Virus record (IMG/VR): IMGVR_UViG_2563366977_000005
Location: 1-39,611 of that record
Direction: 5' to 3' (one strand)
Origin: a virus
Lineage: Duplodnaviria > Heunggongvirae > Uroviricota > Caudoviricetes
Length of the DNA: 39,611 bases
The translations under genes were made by a program, and so were the position numbers. Below are positions 1,675 to 39,611 of the stretch, piece after piece. Numbering within the stretch: position 1 is the stretch's first letter; each line of letters opens with the position of its first letter. Under the pieces are notes generated by a model. That model searched no databases. It was not told the origin of the DNA and saw nothing but the letters and a program-made list of their open reading frames with translations.

Positions 1675-2585
1675 AGATATCTCTGGTCGTTCCTGTCTTC
1701 AATGAAGAAGAAGCGATACCAATTTTCTATAAAACGGTACGTGAATTCGAAGAGTTGAAGCCATATGAAGTTGAAATTGTTTTTATAAATGATGGTAGCA
1801 AAGACGCTACGGAGTCAATAATTAACGCTCTGTCCGTTTCAGATCCTCTAGTTGTTCCGCTGTCATTTACACGAAACTTTGGTAAAGAACCAGCATTGTT
1901 TGCAGGGTTAGACCATGCAACAGGTGATGCCGTTATTCCTATTGATGTTGACCTGCAAGACCCGATTGAGGTCATTCCTCATCTGATTGAAAAGTGGCTA
2001 GCAGGTGCTGACATGGTGCTTGCTAAACGATCTGACCGCTCAACTGATGGCAGACTGAAGAGGAAAACCGCCGAGTGGTTCTATAAGCTGCATAACAAAA
2101 TCAGCAACCCGCAGATCGAGGAAAATGTTGGAGATTTCAGGCTAATGTCTCGCGAGGTGGTCGAAAACATCAAACTCATGCCTGAACGCAACCTGTTCAT
2201 GAAAGGAGTATTGAGCTGGGTTGGTGGGAGTACAGATGTTGTTGAATATGCTCGCGCTGAGCGTGTTGCTGGCAGCACTAAGTTTAATGGCTGGAAGCTC
2301 TGGAACCTGGCGCTTGAAGGGATTACCAGCTTCTCAACATTTCCGTTACGCATGTGGACGTACATTGGCCTGTTCGTTGCAGGCCTGGCTTTCCTGTACG
2401 GTGCCTGGATGATCATTGATACGCTTGCATTCGGGAATCCTGTGCGCGGTTATCCATCATTGCTGGTATCAATACTTTTTCTCGGTGGTGTGCAGCTCAT
2501 TGGTATCGGAGTTTTGGGCGAGTACATTGGCCGGATTTATACCGAAGTTAAACAGAGACCTCGCTACTTGTTAAAAGAGAAATAA
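1671..2585 (+). CDS. gtrB: GtrB, bactoprenol glucosyltransferase (GT2 family), 304 aa
   Basis: 304-aa ORF with an N-terminal glycosyltransferase-like region and C-terminal hydrophobic segments; operon position after gtrA. Confidence 0.88.
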
Positions 2586-2586
2586 A

Positions 2587-3900
2587 ATGGCTGAAAGAAT
2601 AAGGTATGTATTCCTTGCAATTTTTTGTGCATTACTGTGCAAGGAGTCAATTGACATATGGATGATGAATAATGGCGACTTCGATAGGGCCATAACACCT
2701 TTCATGAATGGGATCAGACAGTTCTCACATGATGGCACATTACTTTATACCCTGAAGGAAAATTTCAGTTCAATTGTGAACTATGAGTATAAAAGCTCAT
2801 TTAGTTATATTCTTTATTTATACGCTTATGTTATATCGATATTCACACACACATTTGATCTTAGGTTATGGTCATCTCTTTCCAAAATCGTGTATATTTG
2901 TGCGTTATATAAACTATTTGTAGAAATAAACAATAAAAAATATTCTTATCTTTTATTTCCGGTATCAGCATTATTGCTATTTACTCCTTCCATACTTTCA
3001 CAATTCACAGCATTTTATCAGGAGCAAATAGTAATCACTTTACTTCCGGTAATTACTTATATAATTCTTAAAAAAGAAATATCAAGGTTTGATAAAGTAT
3101 TACTAGTTGCATGCGCAGCGCTAATCGCCACATCAAAATCTCAGTTCTTCTATATTCCCATTTTAATTTCTTTAATTTCAATAATATTTATTGACATAAG
3201 AGATAAAAAATTTCACTTAGCTATGGTAATTGCGACGATAATTGCATTGTCATTTTCATTTTTCTCGCCAAGCGCAACTAAAAATAACAGCTATCACTCC
3301 CTTTATTTCGGGACTTTGCTATACAATAAAAGCAATGGAAAAGAAAATCCATCGTGGGCCGTGGACGAATGCATTGGTGTTGATGCATGGGGAAATAAAT
3401 TTGATTTGGATAAGGGAGCTGTTACCACAAAAGATGCTGGAGCCTGCTTCGCAAAAAATAAAGAAAGGGGATTGAAGGATTCTTTGCTTTTGATGCTAAA
3501 GCAACCTTCCATGTTCCTCCTTCTTCCTTTTGATTCTGGAGTTCGAACCCAATTAACTGAAGATTACTTCCATGTCTTCAAGGAAAATAAGCTAATAATA
3601 AGTAAGAGTGTTTTTTTGAATGAAGTTCAAAAAATAAAAGACTCTGCTCTATCAACTGTGAGGATTCCTGTTGCATTTATAGCCATGATAGCATCACTGA
3701 TTTTTATCCGAAAAAAATATTCTGTTGCAATCTTTACATTATCTGCTTTTAGCATCTCTCAGTTTTATATTAGCTTCATTGGCGAAGGATATAGAGATTT
3801 AGACAAGCATCTTTTTGCAATGAACTTTTCATTTGACCTAATGATATTTATAGTACTATCAATTATATTGGATAAGGTAGCATCAGGAATTTATAAGTAA
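2587..3900 (+). CDS. Serotype-specific O-antigen glucosyltransferase (GtrC-type polytopic membrane protein), 437 aa
   Basis: Third gene of the gtr operon; very AT-rich, many hydrophobic segments; no family recognised by eye, so specificity is unknown. Confidence 0.6.
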   Translation: MAERIRYVFLAIFCALLCKESIDIWMMNNGDFDRAITPFMNGIRQFSHDGTLLYTLKENFSSIVNYEYKSSFSYILYLYAYVISIFTHTFDLRLWSSLSKIVYICALYKLFVEINNKKYSYLLFPVSALLLFTPSILSQFTAFYQEQIVITLLPVITYIILKKEISRFDKVLLVACAALIATSKSQFFYIPILISLISIIFIDIRDKKFHLAMVIATIIALSFSFFSPSATKNNSYHSLYFGTLLYNKSNGKENPSWAVDECIGVDAWGNKFDLDKGAVTTKDAGACFAKNKERGLKDSLLLMLKQPSMFLLLPFDSGVRTQLTEDYFHVFKENKLIISKSVFLNEVQKIKDSALSTVRIPVAFIAMIASLIFIRKKYSVAIFTLSAFSISQFYISFIGEGYRDLDKHLFAMNFSFDLMIFIVLSIILDKVASGIYK

Positions 3901-6079: not shown

Positions 6080-6373
6080 ATGCCATTCCACCCAACTGGT
6101 GAGGCATCAAGGATGTACAGCAAATACGACGAGGCGCAGTTTCACTTGAGACTTCCGCATGAACTCCACGCGAAAATTAAGCAGCGTGCGAAGATGAATA
6201 ACAGGTCGCTGAACTCAGAGATAATTGCAGCGATTGAAGAATCATTGGCTAAACAAAGCTCTGCATCAGTTTACATTGACGATGCAGAGCGTATGGCAGA
6301 ACAACAATCTGATATGGTTAAGAAAATTGTCTTTGATACGCTCAAGGAGCTATATAAAAAAGACAGCAGCTAA
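6080..6373 (+). CDS. mnt: Mnt-like ribbon-helix-helix repressor (alternative start at 6113)
   Basis: FHLRLPHELHAKIKQRAKMNNRSLNSEIIAAIEE and C-terminal ...VKKIVFDTLKELYKK resemble recalled P22 Mnt; divergent from tailspike as in P22 immI. Confidence 0.7.
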   Translation: MPFHPTGEASRMYSKYDEAQFHLRLPHELHAKIKQRAKMNNRSLNSEIIAAIEESLAKQSSASVYIDDAERMAEQQSDMVKKIVFDTLKELYKKDSS

Positions 6374-21819: not shown

Positions 21820-22299
21820 TCATCGAAGGCATTGCGTCCTGATGTATTCCTGAAGCGTTCTTAGTGCTGTTTGGTCGCGGATAATTCCGTCCCGGATACC
21901 GAGAACGTTTCGTCCAGCAACTGGAGAGAGTTCGACGGTGGCATCATTGCCCATGCCGGAGGCGATGGAGGTTTCGCCTGAGGATGGCACAGGGCATTTT
22001 CCTTTGACGAGCACCCTGCCACCATTATCAAGCTTGCGCCGAAGAGCATCATTTTCAGCTTTCGCATCAGCTAACTCCTTCGTGTATTTAGCATCGAGTG
22101 CATCAGCATCACGCTGGCGCTGCTGCATGTCAGTAATGGTAGCGTTCACCTTCTCCAGTTCACTGGCCTTGCTATCGCGCTGCTCTTTGTAGGCGATGGC
22201 GTTATCACGGTAATGATTAACAGCCCATGACAGGCAGACGATGATGCAGATAACCAGAGCGGAGATAATCGCGGTGACTCTGCTCATTGCTGTCCCCAC
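21820..22299 (-). CDS. Rz: Rz, inner-membrane spanin subunit (159 aa)
   Basis: N-terminal TM segment, coiled-coil body; resembles recalled lambda Rz; embedded Rz1 ORF. Confidence 0.85.
21861..22067 (-). CDS. Rz1: Rz1, outer-membrane lipoprotein spanin subunit embedded in Rz
   Basis: Alternate frame inside Rz; lipobox-like LIMVAGC; Pro-rich (PPSPPAW) like lambda Rz1. Confidence 0.7.
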
Positions 22300-35638: not shown

Positions 35639-35913
35639 AACAAATGTCACTAATTGAGATGGATGGATTTCTGAAAGGTAAATGCATCCCACGAGATTTA
35701 AAGGTTAACGAAACAAACGCTGAATATCTTGTCCGTAAGTTCGGTGAACTTGAATCAAAACTCAACGAGCAGCGTGAGTATTACGAAGGTGTTATCTCGG
35801 ATGGGAGTAAGCGCATTGCTGAACTGGAGAAAAGCGAAGAGCAACTCATTATTGAGCAAGCAACTCACTGGATGCCACTACCAGAACCGCCACAGGAGTC
35901 GAAGAGTGAATAA
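35617..35913 (+). CDS. Hypothetical acidic coiled-coil protein (98 aa)
   Basis: ORF overlapping neighbours by short junctions. Confidence 0.45.
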
Positions 35914-36127
35914 AGCAGAGTTATTTCAGAAAATATCGGCTCTCGCGACTGAATGCCACGCTATAGCATCTGAGCTTGATGTTGGCGATGAACGAACCGA
36001 GATGTTCGAAATATACAGTGTGCTGCGCAATCTCTGTCGGCGTGGCTACGCCACTCAAGTAGGGCGAATGACTAACCCACTACTCTCATCCTGTGATGAG
36101 GATGACTCGGATGAGGATGACGAATGA
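35906..36127 (+). CDS. Small protein (about 73 aa) with strongly acidic C-terminus (CDEDDSDEDDE), GTG start
   Basis: AGGAG 7 nt upstream of GTG; the upstream part of ORF 35729-36127 looks non-coding and overlaps the previous gene. Confidence 0.35.
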   Translation: MNKAELFQKISALATECHAIASELDVGDERTEMFEIYSVLRNLCRRGYATQVGRMTNPLLSSCDEDDSDEDDE

Positions 36128-36789
36128 TGCATAAATCAGTAGCCGGTGAGTTTCAGAAGGAAGTCGATAATACTACCGTTCTATTGGACGATATTTTAAG
36201 CATTCTCGCGCTGCTTGAGGCTGGCGATTGGTCAGAACATTGCACTAAAACAGAGCTAGGCGGTCGGCTTGAAAGAGAGATTACACGACTTATTGGTGAT
36301 GCGCAGGAAGCTACAGTCACTAGTTATGAGTTAATCGCTGAAGCCTGGCGTTTGATGGATGGACAAGATCCTAAAACCAGCGATTGGCATAGCAAGGCTT
36401 CGAAGTATTTAAATTCCAATAGGGTAGAAAAAGTTGATGATGTGAAACCGAAGCCAGTAGACCACGGTTTCCGCGATAACTGCGAATGCTCTAGTTGCCA
36501 GACCACGGCCCGTATTTGTTCCGAATTGACAGATAAGTCCAGCCTAATCTACGAAGTTAATGTAGGCGGTAATACATGGGTCGAATGCACAAGAGCTGCA
36601 TACGTAAGAGCAAAAGACAAGGGTGAATTAACCAGAGTTGTTACCAATCACCCAAATAATGAGCTTAAAGATCACCAGATTCGAGAACTGGTGAACGAGT
36701 TGAGGGATATTGCGGTTCAGTACCACGGAACGCAGCAATTGCGGGAGAAGATTGCCAGAGCAGTGAACAACTCAGTCCGTAAAAAATAA
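36124..36789 (+). CDS. Hypothetical protein (221 aa)
   Basis: Long ORF with balanced composition; ATGA overlap with upstream ORF. Confidence 0.6.
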   Translation: MMHKSVAGEFQKEVDNTTVLLDDILSILALLEAGDWSEHCTKTELGGRLEREITRLIGDAQEATVTSYELIAEAWRLMDGQDPKTSDWHSKASKYLNSNRVEKVDDVKPKPVDHGFRDNCECSSCQTTARICSELTDKSSLIYEVNVGGNTWVECTRAAYVRAKDKGELTRVVTNHPNNELKDHQIRELVNELRDIAVQYHGTQQLREKIARAVNNSVRKK

Positions 36790-37232
36790 GCAATAGTACG
36801 ATAAAGAGGCCCCATGCTCTTGATGGGGCCTGTAGCAACTAGCGTTATGGACGCTGGTTTACGTACTCAATGATCGCTTTGATAATCGCGAACATCGGCG
36901 GCACGATTTTGAACAGTAAGTTAACCATAACAGGCCTCACTTAGTTTTATCGCGCCTAGCTGCAAATACCTTTGGGCTTGCCTTTGCAGTTGCAATATCT
37001 GTAGTCGCCAGATACTTACGGCACGATTTCGAGTTAAGGTAAGGTTTTAGAGTCACCAAAAACCTGGACTTAAATCTTCTTTGAGAACAACGATGTTTAG
37101 TAAATGGTCATTATTACCTGGTATGACCACTCAACGTTTCTTGATGAATCCAGTACATTCGGTTAATCTTAATTCAGTCGCCAGATACTTATGGCTCAGG
37201 AACAGAGCCGCAAACTCTGTTTCCTTTTAAAA

Positions 37233-37260
37233 AGCCCAGCCTAGTCAACTGGGCTTTTTA
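37233..37260. terminator. Bidirectional intrinsic terminator
   Basis: AGCCCAG / CTGGGCT stem flanked by A4 upstream and T5 downstream. Confidence 0.65.
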
Positions 37261-37554
37261 ATGTCTATTTTTAACCCAATGAACCTTCAATACCGCAACA
37301 TCAGTGTCTTGCGAATTAAGATAGTGTGTATAGGTTATACATGCAAGTGCATAACTCTGTGGATAACTCAGGAAGGAAAAAGTAGCTTCCGCGCAATTTA
37401 GGCCAGACAAGGCTTTCGCAAAAGTCAACGGAGAGAAAAAATTTGTTAAAAATAACGTTTGTTGGAATTGTATATATTTATGCCTTTCAATAGTTAGCAT
37501 CTTATTAACATCTTTTTTAAGAGATAGAGTTCAAAAATATATAGCTTCAACATA

Positions 37555-37574
37555 TACTGTATGTATATACAGCA
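37555..37574. promoter_or_regulatory. LexA (SOS) box TACTGTATGTATATACAGCA
   Basis: CTG-N10-CAG with TA-rich spacer matching the E. coli LexA consensus; 17 nt upstream of the umuD'-like ATG. Confidence 0.7.
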
Positions 37575-37590
37575 TTAAGAGGCGAGTATT

Positions 37591-38046
37591 ATGGGCTTCC
37601 CTTCTCCTGCGGCGGATTATGCTGAGAGCCGTATTTCTCTTGATCAGCAGATAATTAGACATCCTTCAGCGACCTACTTCTTGAGGGCAGCTGATAGCCA
37701 TCATCGTGAGGGAATATTGCAGGGTGCATTGCTGGTGGTCGATTCATCACTCACTCCTGTTGATGGATCTCTTCTTGTATGTGCTCTGGATGGGGAATAT
37801 CGCGTAAAAAGATACCGGAAGTATCCGCGCCGCCATGATTGTCTTTCTCCTAATGCAGGAAAAGCAGAATGGCTAAATCATCAGCAGAGCGCAAAGCCGA
37901 TCAGAGAGCCAAGCAAGCATCATCCGGTATGCGTAAGCTGGAGCTTGTACTTGATGCTCAGGAAATTGAAATGCTGGATCGTAACTGAGCCACGCGCCGC
38001 TTCAGGCATTCGCCTTGCGAGTTTGGTGAGTACATCGCGTTACTGA
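37591..38046 (+). pseudogene. umuD'-like gene remnant: first ~85 codons are UmuD/S24-peptidase-like, remainder of the ORF is not
   Basis: GFPSPAADY...HPSATYF...LLVVDS...DGEYRVKR aligns with recalled UmuD including Ser and Lys positions; the C-terminal half is R/S/W/C-rich and looks out of frame; no frame continues the homology. Confidence 0.5.
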
Positions 38047-38207
38047 GCCGCCAGGATGATGCACGTGTGCGCTGGCGTATAAAATCGATCAGCAGAAAAC
38101 GTTGCGGTAAGTGCGGCGAGAGAGTTCCTGTTAATTCATGCCCGTGTAATGGTGACTCACAATGCTGGGTGACCAAAGGCTGGCACGAAACAAAATTAAT
38201 GATATAA
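37869..38207 (+). other. ORF with RBS interrupted by in-frame TGA (37986-37988); 39-aa N-terminal part plus 72-codon Cys-rich continuation
   Basis: Hand translation: MAKSSAERKADQRAKQASSGMRKLELVLDAQEIEMLDRN-stop-ATRRFRHSPCEFGEYIALLSRQDDARVRWRIKSISRKRCGKCGERVPVNSCPCNGDSQCWVTKGWHETKLMI. Confidence 0.3.
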
Positions 38208-38235: not shown

Positions 38236-38664
38236 ATGAAATTAGACCAGCAATATCTAAAAGATTTACTTATCGCATTCGAAAAAACTCGTGGCCCTGA
38301 CACGATGCTTAGTGAACTAGAGGATAATGGCTTTAATAGATATGACCAAGATTTTATTTTCCATATGCGATTATTATATGACTACGAATTAATAGTCAGG
38401 GTTGATGGAAAACCTGGGTTCGGTCATATAATGTCCAAAGCGTTAGGGGAAGGTGTTGGATATAGTTGGATCGAAGTACCACTGAGGTTGACAGCAAGAG
38501 GGCATGATTTTATTGCTGACTTACGTCAAAAGGATGTCTGGCAAGCTATAAAAACAAACTTTAAGGATGAGGGAATTAGTACACTTATGAGTGTTTCAAA
38601 ATCACTAGCAAAAGGCTTTGCAAGGAAAAAGATAAAAGATATTACAGGAATAGATATTGAATAA
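38236..38664 (+). CDS. Hypothetical protein (142 aa)
   Basis: ORF with GGAGG upstream of ATG; followed by an intrinsic terminator. Confidence 0.6.
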   Translation: MKLDQQYLKDLLIAFEKTRGPDTMLSELEDNGFNRYDQDFIFHMRLLYDYELIVRVDGKPGFGHIMSKALGEGVGYSWIEVPLRLTARGHDFIADLRQKDVWQAIKTNFKDEGISTLMSVSKSLAKGFARKKIKDITGIDIE

Positions 38665-38709
38665 TTCTTAGCATCAAGCAACTACTGCCTTTGGTGGAAA
38701 TTATATCTG

Positions 38710-38734
38710 AACTCGCTACGGCGAGTTTTGTTTT
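38710..38734 (+). terminator. Intrinsic terminator
   Basis: AACTCGC-TACG-GCGAGTT hairpin followed by TTGTTTT. Confidence 0.6.
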
Positions 38735-38747
38735 ATGGAGATGATAA

Positions 38748-38915
38748 ATGCACTTCCGAGTCACAGGTGAATGGAATGGAGAGCCATTCAACAGGGTTAT
38801 CGAAGCAGAGAACATCAACGACTGCTATAACCACTGGATGATATGGGCGCAGATAGCGCATGCAGACGTAACCAATATTCGAATTGAAGAACTGAAAGAA
38901 CACCATGCCGCCTGA
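38748..38915 (+). CDS. Small protein (55 aa)
   Basis: GGAG 8 nt upstream of ATG; stop codon lies in the loop of a hairpin followed by T6. Confidence 0.45.
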   Translation: MHFRVTGEWNGEPFNRVIEAENINDCYNHWMIWAQIAHADVTNIRIEELKEHHAA

Positions 38916-38929
38916 TGGCGGTTTTTTAT
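38907..38929 (+). terminator. Weak intrinsic terminator overlapping the stop of the 55-aa ORF
   Basis: CCGCC-TGAT-GGCGG followed by TTTTTTATT. Confidence 0.45.
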
Positions 38930-39286
38930 TGTAGACAAGAAATGTCAGATTTGGCTATGAAGGTTTTGAAATGGCAATCGACTGGCGATGTCGGCATCAG
39001 TAGCGCAACTCTTGCCTCAATCGCATGTGGACTGAAAAAGAATATCTATGGTCATAGCTTCGGTGCTCCACATGACGCAGCCGATTTCCGGCGATGCGTT
39101 GCACTTGTTGAGCAGATTCCAGAAATCAGAGATTCATTCGACAAGGTTGCAAAGCGCGTTCCGGCATTCAAAGGCATCCTCAACGAATGGGATTCTCTCG
39201 TTGCTCTGTTGAAGTCTGAAATGAAGATACACGGAAACAAAGCACCAGAGACTTACAGAAGAATCAGCGAGCTACGCAAGGACTAA
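38915..39286 (+). CDS. Hypothetical protein (123 aa as drawn; likely starts at 38942 or 38957)
   Basis: First 9 codons of the ORF coincide with the upstream terminator, so a downstream Met is more likely. Confidence 0.5.
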   Translation: MAVFYCRQEMSDLAMKVLKWQSTGDVGISSATLASIACGLKKNIYGHSFGAPHDAADFRRCVALVEQIPEIRDSFDKVAKRVPAFKGILNEWDSLVALLKSEMKIHGNKAPETYRRISELRKD

Positions 39287-39410
39287 CCACAGTCTCACAC
39301 TCGATGAGGCCTGTTCATTTCTCAAGATATCCAGACCTACCATTGCTGCATCAATGCGGCTTTTTATTGCCTGATTTGCAGGTTCGATTCCATATTCGGA
39401 GATAGCACTC

Positions 39411-39611
39411 ATGCAACACGAACTACAGCCTGATTCACTGGTTGATTTGAAATTCATCATGGCCGATACTGGCTTTGGTAAAACCTTCATCTACGACCGG
39501 ATTAAGTCCGGCGACCTGCCAAAAGCCAAAGTTATCCACGGTCGAGCAAGATGGTTATATCGTGACCATTGTGAATTCAAAAATAAGCTCTTAAGCCGCG
39601 CCAATGGGTAA
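39411..39611 (+). CDS. xis: Excisionase / recombination directionality factor (TorI-like), 66 aa
   Basis: Translation matches KplE1 TorI as recalled; ends exactly at the window edge. Confidence 0.8.
   Translation: MQHELQPDSLVDLKFIMADTGFGKTFIYDRIKSGDLPKAKVIHGRARWLYRDHCEFKNKLLSRANG

Follow-up and report, generated by a model that had tools for sequence, protein, structure and literature searches.

The open reading frame (ORF) at 37591-38046 of the window, the 39,611-nucleotide stretch of phage DNA analysed here, is the broken front part of a humD gene with a putative LexA-repressed promoter. It is an ordinary find, and the pseudogene is already annotated; the humD family, its LexA operator and this exact pseudogene are all already known. 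In all likelihood, the feature is a decayed "moron" cassette that was transferred from a phage-plasmid and then broken by a microhomology crossover, leaving promoter, operator and ribosome-binding site in place. The earlier note had read a LexA-controlled, UmuD'-only remnant like P1 humD from the sequence, and this reading holds, with a match to the HumD equivalog profile and a box that aligns with the LexA site of P1.

The window spans a P22-like prophage integrated at tRNA-Arg (argW), whose left end falls inside intS and whose right end is torI, and the E. coli AST215 chromosome has a stretch identical to it. The leftward early (pL) operon carries the humD remnant at its distal end, behind N, kil, a Rad52-family gene, ssb, an anti-RecBCD gene and several small ORFs, and torI lies 1.8 kb downstream; all are on the plus strand of the window. 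The features discussed below are collected in Table 1.

Table 1. Coordinates of features at and around the humD remnant (window positions).
Feature	Position	Strand	Remarks
Candidate toxin, 27-aa hydrophobic ORF	36928 to 36845	-	MVNLLFKIVPPMFAIIKAIIEYVNQRP; with Shine-Dalgarno and terminator
Candidate sRNA, ~90 nt	37174-37262	+	Two hairpins; MFE -34 kcal/mol, z=-4.7
Bidirectional terminator-like hairpin	37227-37261	.	13-nt perfect arms, T-runs on both sides; boundary between the upstream module and the region of the humD promoter
Sigma-70-like promoter (PhumD)	37530-37558	+	TTCAAA-17 nt-TATACT; consensus scan only, 9/12 matches
LexA (SOS) box	37555-37574	.	TACTGTATGTATATACAGCA; aligned to the protein_bind feature for LexA in the P1 record
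Shine-Dalgarno	37578-37583	+	AAGAGG, 7 nt before the ATG; read from sequence
151-aa chimeric ORF	37591-38046	+	HumD residues 1 to ~80, then out-of-frame tail over ninX tail and regulator gene
humD 5' remnant	37591-37831	+	Codons 1 to ~80 of 129; RefSeq pseudogene is 37591-37836
Recombination junction	37824-37831	+	8-bp microhomology TCCGCGCC common to P1-type humD and the ninX 3' end; from alignments
NinX/DUF2591 gene 3' tail	37832-37876	+	ninX-frame stop TAA at 37874-37876
phrog_536 "transcriptional regulator" gene	37869-38207	+	Nonsense codon TGA at 37986-37988
DUF2513 gene, phrog_585	38236-38664	+	Intact, function unknown; first intact gene downstream of the putative LexA-controlled promoter
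Intrinsic-terminator-like site	38709-38738	+	GAACTCGC-TACG-GCGAGTTT and T-tract; hairpin 38709-38728; first convincing site after PhumD
torI	39411-39611	+	

Identity of the Remnant

Residues 2-79 of the ORF align with the UmuD' crystal-structure chain 1umu_A (E=1.1e-20), and query residue 2 corresponds to residue 1 of the UmuD' chain and to residue 25 of full-length UmuD in 8gmt_B. The ORF thus begins at the UmuD' N-terminus (Gly25 equivalent) without a cleavable arm, which is the hallmark of HumD, and its N-terminus, MGFPSPAADY, is the same in P1 and Cyrano HumD. The serine and lysine at the catalytic positions are kept, as first noticed from the translation: Ser36 (...AADSHH) and Lys73 (...VKR) align with the DS and VKK of UmuD' and are invariant in P1 and Cyrano HumD. 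In UmuD numbering, their partners in the catalytic dyad are Ser60 and Lys97. The Pfam family Peptidase_S24 (PF00717) covers residues 1-82 (E=3.8e-10), and the NCBIfam HumD equivalog NF051876 is matched at 140.7 bits against a cutoff of 120, although only over profile positions 1-95 of 129. With intact HumD as the tblastn query, residues 1-82 fall at 37591-37836 with 97.6% identity. At the DNA level, the remnant is 85% identical to P1 humD and 96-98% identical to the humD of P1-like phage-plasmids.

The HumD alignment of the ORF breaks at residue 80-82. The homology to UmuD' that the earlier note had seen is borne out, but it extends over about 80 residues and not about 85. The C-terminal ~50 residues (HumD 80-129), which hold the remaining beta-strands and the dimer interface, are missing, and a tblastn search for them in every frame of the 39.6-kb window found none (best E=0.31), as the note had also maintained. 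Because the complete domain is lacking, the feature is, on sequence grounds, a remnant of the HumD family and not a functional member. The HumD fragment is very probably non-functional, since the absent C-terminal strands make up ~40% of the S24 fold. In RefSeq, the identical stretch of E. coli AST215 is labelled a pseudogene, "HumD family translesion DNA polymerase", with the remark "missing C-terminus"; older RefSeq annotations of the 151-aa ORF read "S24 family peptidase", and the current PGAP call is a pseudogene.

Against 5.8 billion protein clusters, the ORF gave 321 matches, of which the best 120 are considered here. Among these 120, one cluster (151 aa, 38 members) covers the full ORF; this is all that appears there of the conserved, intact 151-aa family against which the note had set its proposal. 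The other 119 are HumD-family clusters, mostly of ~129 aa, that cover about half to three quarters of the query, and among these best 120 of 321 all the homologues other than the 151-aa cluster cease to match at approximately residue 82-95.

Junction and Out-of-Frame Tail

From the alignments, the break looks like a microhomology-mediated illegitimate crossover. The humD homology ends at 37829-37836 (37829-37831 for DNA) and the ninX homology begins at 37811, with a weaker shared GATACC at 37812-37817 in addition to the 8-bp microhomology. The junction is thus placed ~20-25 nt upstream of the position near 37850 that had been suggested. From there, the humD frame crosses the ninX tail out of frame, passes its stop and continues through the regulator gene to 38046. 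This explains the odd-looking end of the ORF, which had been correctly judged to be out of frame. Both ninX/DUF2591 and the phrog_536 regulator gene that follows it are intact in phages of the phiV10/TL-2011b type, at ~90% identity.

LexA Box, Putative Promoter, and Translation Signals

The SOS box announced in front of the ORF is confirmed as near-consensus. TACTGTATGTATATACAGCA matches the 20-nt LexA consensus TACTGTATATATATACAGTA at 18 of 20 positions (2 mismatches), it is the only site in the 39.6-kb window with at most 3 mismatches, and none of 100 dinucleotide-preserving shuffles yielded such a site. By itself, the looser core CTGT-N8-ACAG does not reach significance (2 in the window against 0.59 expected); its only other occurrence, at 22290, has a GC-rich spacer. 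A heterology index was computed with an approximate matrix of 24 E. coli LexA operators. On this matrix, the window box scores 2.2, between umuDC (0.3) and sulA (3.8) and ahead of recA (5.5), with 9.6 for the runner-up in the window. The gap between the box and the ATG at 37591 measures 16 nt, one fewer than the 17 nt given before.

The -10 hexamer of the putative promoter shares the first four bases of the LexA box. Promoter matches of the 9/12 type are not enriched in the region, where 4 are found against 6.1 expected from shuffled sequence. The promoter sequence is, however, identical in the P1-like phage Cyrano and in the Ec-U3 prophage, both of which carry an intact humD, and promoter, box and Shine-Dalgarno agree base for base with theirs save for two substitutions in the box. 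The box of Cyrano, Ec-U3 and strain PK6 is TACTGTATGTGTATACAGTA; despite the two substitutions that separate the window box from it, both half-sites (CTGT-N8-ACAG) are kept. The promoter, LexA operator and ribosome-binding site of the remnant are apparently intact by these comparisons.

LexA control is probably a trait of the wider family. The P1 record annotates a "LexA binding site in the regulatory region of lxr and humD", and a review of P1-like plasmids describes humD as a LexA-regulated SOS gene (PMC9603915). One or two TACTG-N10-CAGTA boxes are present at each of five diverged humD loci (47-66% protein identity), which come from Kluyvera, Klebsiella, Lelliottia, Citrobacter and a metagenome. 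The distance from box to humD is 16-44 nt, or 284 nt, in which case the box precedes a co-oriented 80-aa ORF. In four of the five, humD is divergent from dinI. A LexA box is kept at the orthologous position in P1, Cyrano, Ec-U3 and the five loci of other genera. By arithmetic, a 10-base pattern with every base specified should turn up ~0.001 times in 400 nt. Its recurrence at all the diverged loci amounts to strong phylogenetic footprinting in favour of LexA control across the humD family.

Intact Relatives and Probable Direction of Transfer

The intact ancestor that the earlier note had suggested seeking in related prophages is present in a P22-like prophage at thrW in E. coli Ec-U3, as well as in the P1-like phage Cyrano. 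These 129-aa genes, which share the promoter and upstream DNA of the window, support the proposal that the gene was later disrupted. Window positions 35863-37829 are 98.7% identical to Cyrano, in which a 390-nt humD follows the same promoter, 800-nt spacer and 221-aa ORF; positions 36454-37829 are 98.4% identical to the Ec-U3 prophage. The Ec-U3 humD (WP_000506720.1) encodes 129 aa and is followed by the terminator GGCGGTGCAATGCACCGCC-TTTTTAT. The intact cassette is self-contained, with a predicted LexA-repressed promoter, humD and a terminator. Beyond this terminator, the Ec-U3 prophage retains the last 64 bp (3' end) of the plasmid gene apbC/minD, which indicates that the cassette moved from plasmid to prophage and not the reverse. 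The sequence comparison points to passage of the humD cassette from a Cyrano-type phage-plasmid into the Ec-U3 prophage.

Differences between the window and Cyrano are unevenly spread. Upstream of humD, ~0.5% of positions differ, whereas the last ~85 bp of the remnant (37746-37829) hold 9 to 10 differences (~11-12%), most of which match instead the widespread short remnant of phage Chlobot and strain ATCC 8739 (described below). This agreement suggests that the form with the SOS box could be a secondary recombinant. It may be the ancestral junction product, or it may be a short remnant whose 5' part was restored by a resident P1-like plasmid. Strain MLI108K3 carries a chromosomal remnant together with a 108-kb humD plasmid, which shows that the opportunity for such recombination exists.

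Distribution Among E. coli Genomes

The humD::ninX junction occurs in 140 of 5426 complete E. coli genomes. Four independent complete genomes share the full configuration of the window at 99.3-100% identity, and the SOS box is intact in only 4 of the 140; two more begin inside or just after the box, and at least 134 have lost it. In strain PK6, the late start is due to ISKox3, which is inserted inside the LexA box with an 8-bp duplication of 37561-37568. Retention of the box in only 4 of 140 genomes, together with the ISKox3 insertion, suggests that there is no sign of selection retaining the promoter. Most of the 140 carry a shorter, promoterless remnant that starts at 37726. In ATCC 8739, its annotation reads "DNA repair protein", for a pseudogene of 66 nt, and in phage Chlobot it is mis-called "UmuD-like protein"; the short remnant is probably the basis of phrog_10470. 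Intact humD 3' ends are found at 724 plasmid places and 54 chromosomal places.

Downstream Genes and Possible Read-Through

RefSeq annotates 37869-38207 as "hypothetical protein; internal stop", and TL-2011b and Chlobot have TGT where the regulator gene of the window has TGA. A defence role of the flanking genes found no support from PADLOC, in which neither DUF2513 nor the regulator, the 221-aa ORF or either of the two small ORFs had a match. It is plausible from the layout that the orphan PhumD could read into the regulator pseudogene and the DUF2513 gene, since recombination removed the humD terminator and the next strong plus-strand hairpin follows DUF2513. Capture of the DUF2513 gene into the SOS regulon, such that it would be driven by PhumD in lysogens without CI cleavage or N antitermination, is a tentative proposal that may well not hold. 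Nothing suggests selection for the arrangement of promoter and downstream genes, and the cargo is modest, with one pseudogene and one gene of unknown function. A role for PhumD in driving torI, and with it LexA-dependent excision of the IntS/TorI prophage, was considered and rejected: three hairpins intervene, two of them (38907-38922 and 39345-39360) beyond the one that follows DUF2513, and PhumD transcripts have no nut site.

An unlikely alternative to SOS-driven transcription is that box and promoter are inert relics. The remnant would then be silent or transcribed only by N-antiterminated read-through from pL, and nothing downstream would be SOS-controlled. The modest promoter score in a region without promoter enrichment fits this alternative, as do the loss of the box from at least 134 of the 140 junction-bearing genomes and the IS insertion in PK6, which suggest no selection. 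However, the promoter, box and Shine-Dalgarno are those of the intact and presumably expressed humD of Cyrano and Ec-U3, the substitutions in the box spare CTGT-N8-ACAG, and on the approximate matrix the box scores alongside the strongest operators of E. coli.

A Candidate Toxin-Antitoxin Pair in the Spacer

What seems to be a type I toxin-antitoxin pair, so far unannotated, lies at 36845-37262, in the 800-nt spacer that accompanies humD. The pair consists of a small hydrophobic ORF and a divergent sRNA, whose 3' hairpin doubles as the bidirectional terminator-like hairpin. A 20-nt repeat (37003-37022 and 37176-37195) makes the 5' tail of the sRNA antisense to the 5'UTR of the toxin. In a diverged plasmid locus (L011), both copies of the repeat have changed together from ACTTA to ACATT, at two co-varying positions, and the homologous peptide MVSLLLKILPPLVAIITTIIDYINKR is kept. 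The antisense stretch thus covaries in an organisation expected of such pairs. The Rfam family AgrB (RF02891), the antitoxin of the SOS gene dinQ, is matched at 27.6 bits, below the gathering score of 40, and a scan of the whole window at gathering threshold returned zero known RNA families. The toxin-candidate peptides match no Pfam family, and a 31-aa version with a GTG start (36845-36940) matches no NCBIfam family. No annotated feature underlies the pair at the 30 places listed of 116 matching E. coli records. The pair is a candidate that may work like dinQ/agrB, but it is not a demonstrated member of that family.

Alternative Readings of the Box and the ORF

The LexA box could instead serve mainly a divergent minus-strand transcript or the type I toxin candidate, which is improbable. 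For a divergent transcript speak the annotation of the P1 site for both lxr and humD and the divergence of humD from dinI in several of the diverged loci; however, no homologue of lxr or dinI and no annotated minus-strand gene lies beside the box, nor is there a minus-strand promoter-like site near it. A minus-strand 80-aa ORF at 37258-37500, considered as an lxr analogue, matches no family. The case for toxin control is that the AgrB-like sRNA and small-toxin candidates lie 300-700 nt upstream and that E. coli dinQ is LexA-regulated, according to one report (PMC3567139). The bidirectional terminator stands between the box and the toxin candidate, which argues against such control. A second LexA box near the toxin candidate was sought and none was found, the core at 22290 being the only other one in the window.

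It is very improbable that the 151 aa form a new S24-like chimera that is functional. Its 151 open codons, good ribosome-binding site, older "S24 family peptidase" label and 38-member cluster could be taken to favour one, but residues 81-151 are an out-of-frame reading of a ninX tail and a regulator gene that are intact elsewhere. In addition, such a protein would be without ~40% of the length of the S24 fold and all of its C-terminal strands, the other homologues among the best 120 of 321 matches end near residue 82-95, and PGAP now calls a pseudogene. The least credible alternative, that humD is really intact and the truncation is an assembly or sequencing artefact, is a general possibility only and can be set aside, as four independent complete genomes show the same configuration at near identity, the junction recurs in 140 genomes and phage Chlobot, and the 3' coding sequence is absent and not frameshifted.

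Proposed History and Behaviour

The account that best fits a decayed cassette would begin in P1-family phage-plasmids, where the intact cassette has its home. Its product, the 129-aa HumD, serves as a pre-processed analogue of UmuD' and is the partner of UmuC in SOS mutagenesis; P1 HumD reportedly complements UmuD' in this process, a result attributed to McLenigan et al. (1999), whose paper PMC4713147 cites. A Cyrano-type phage-plasmid would have donated ~2-2.8 kb to P22-like prophages, a segment that would comprise two ea-type ORFs, the 800-nt spacer, PhumD and humD. In the argW prophage lineage, the last third of humD and its terminator would then have been replaced through a crossover at TCCGCGCC with the 3' end of ninX/DUF2591, which would have placed a regulator gene of the phiV10/TL-2011b type behind the ninX tail. 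The predicted product is an 80-residue HumD fragment followed by 71 out-of-frame residues.

In a lysogen, LexA bound to the box, which lies over the -10 and +1, would block RNA polymerase. After DNA damage, RecA* would drive self-cleavage of LexA, and PhumD would fire. As the cassette terminator is gone, the transcript would run on across the regulator pseudogene and the DUF2513 gene and end at the hairpin at 38709-38728. It would stop short of torI, with two more terminator-like sites between.

The humD remnant matters little by itself, because P1 humD and its LexA operator have been described and the exact pseudogene is in RefSeq. Its interest would lie in a clean and datable case of gene flow from P1-like phage-plasmids to P22-like and lambda-like prophages, followed by microhomology-mediated decay, in which donor, intact intermediate and two remnant stages all persist in sequenced E. 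coli. The case also carries a warning for annotation: the 151-aa "S24 family peptidase", the phage "UmuD-like protein" and probably phrog_10470 are pseudogene read-throughs. Finally, the orphan SOS promoter is a possible case of promoter capture and, if this is true, the host SOS regulon would have gained in this way a phage gene whose function is unknown.

Comparison With Known Systems

P1 humD (NC_005856: 87584-87973; LexA site 87545-87564) shares with the remnant the N-terminal start, the serine and lysine and the lack of a cleavable arm. Protein identity is 70-74% across the full alignment, with scarcely a change up to residue 80, and in both the 20-nt LexA box lies at an aligned position 16-19 nt upstream of the ATG. 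The DNA of 37555-37831 is 85% identical to P1, with homology that starts exactly at the annotated LexA site. According to a note in the P1 record (NC_005856), HumD complements UmuD' in SOS mutagenesis; in the P1 Ref paper, humD served only as a non-C1 control gene. Unlike P1 humD, the window gene breaks off after ~codon 80, where foreign DNA continues it out of frame, and it has neither the divergent lxr nor the downstream phd-doc. Moreover, P1 is a plasmid-prophage, whereas the window element is a P22-like prophage that has no sequence related to P1 upstream of the box.

With E. coli umuDC, the remnant shares the S24 fold, the positions of the catalytic dyad and a LexA box over what is, in the window, a putative promoter; the umuDC box reads TACTGTATATAAAAACAGTA. 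However, the remnant has no UmuD N-terminal arm and no adjacent umuC, and its protein is truncated. The closest likeness is to the Cyrano/Ec-U3 cassette, with 98-99% DNA identity over ~2 kb from the 221-aa ORF through humD codons 1-80; that cassette encodes the intact 129 aa and has its own terminator, both of which the window copy lacks. The short remnant of lambda-like prophages shares the humD::ninX junction with the window, as well as the regulator and DUF2513 genes behind it, and is 97-98% identical to the window from 37726 onward. It has lost all that precedes 37726, the promoter, SOS box and start codon among it, whereas the window keeps them.

Capture of humD From a Phage-Plasmid

The E. 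coli Ec-U3 prophage, located at thrW, carries an intact humD, the P1-type UmuD' homologue. Its humD terminator is followed by the final 64 bp of the apbC/minD gene of the phage-plasmid, the Cyrano-type P1-like element, and this apbC/minD fragment joins the middle part of a homologue of the window ORF at 38942-39286. The terminator together with the apbC/minD piece (Ec-U3 locus, 6168-6268) is a footprint of capture from plasmid to prophage. The chromosome of E. coli MLI108K3 (NZ_CP117006.1) has the humD remnant with its SOS box, and the same strain harbors a 108-kb P1-like plasmid (NZ_CP117002.1) with a humD-related gene; therefore, both recombination partners are present within one cell.

A Candidate Type I Toxin-Antitoxin Module Upstream of humD

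An unannotated region upstream of humD resembles a type I toxin-antitoxin module and is considered a candidate for one. Its toxin candidate is a short hydrophobic peptide, and the divergent small RNA (sRNA) candidate has a 5' tail that is the antisense counterpart of the toxin 5'UTR. The Rfam AgrB family matches the module at 27.6 bits, below the threshold of 40. In a diverged plasmid copy, two duplex positions co-vary, and a homologous peptide is also kept. In E. coli the module accompanies humD, with 106 matching places on plasmids and 10 on chromosomes; among the matches listed (30 of 116), no annotated feature lies over it.

Features of the window around the humD remnant
Feature	Position	Strand	Description
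Toxin-antitoxin-like module	36845-37262		candidate, type I
Toxin candidate ORF	36928->36845	minus	27-aa hydrophobic peptide
Module repeats	37003-37022 and 37176-37195
sRNA candidate	37174-37262	plus	~90 nt, divergent from toxin ORF
phrog_536 gene	37869-38207		"transcriptional regulator", 112 aa, C-terminal half cysteine-rich

Between this module and the humD remnant, window positions 37342-37465 share 76% similarity with the P1 upfN/upfO region directly upstream of hot (P1 locus, 869-991). The matched P1 stretch comprises most of upfO and also covers the point where late promoter LPhot begins, and according to the P1 record it takes in a tract with two predicted DnaA boxes.

The LexA Box in Other Strains and Genera

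In E. coli PK6, the ISL3-family element ISKox3 is inserted within the LexA box (PK6 locus, 1685-3000; window 37561-37568), with an 8-bp target duplication, ATGTATAT, and the operator is thereby split. Homology to the window is likewise lost at 37556 in strain 97.3. Outside E. coli, humD loci were compared from Kluyvera, Klebsiella, Citrobacter, and a metagenome. A dinI-family gene is usually divergent from humD at these loci, and the intergenic region common to the two genes contains one or two predicted LexA boxes. Citrobacter-type loci have an 80-aa ORF between the LexA box and humD.

Chimeric ORF and Downstream Regulator Pseudogene

The family phrog_10470, labelled "UmuD-like protein" and 79 positions long, has its match in the chimeric ORF at residues 37-96, which span the humD junction and reach into the out-of-frame tail. 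Because the match crosses this junction, the family appears, from sequence, to have been made from remnant read-through ORFs and not from real proteins.

Downstream, a single substitution, TGT to TGA at 37986-37988, has inactivated the phrog_536 gene of the window. Phages of the TL-2011b and phiV10 types carry an intact copy of this gene. It is apparently also intact in phage Chlobot, whose record shows two other ORFs there.
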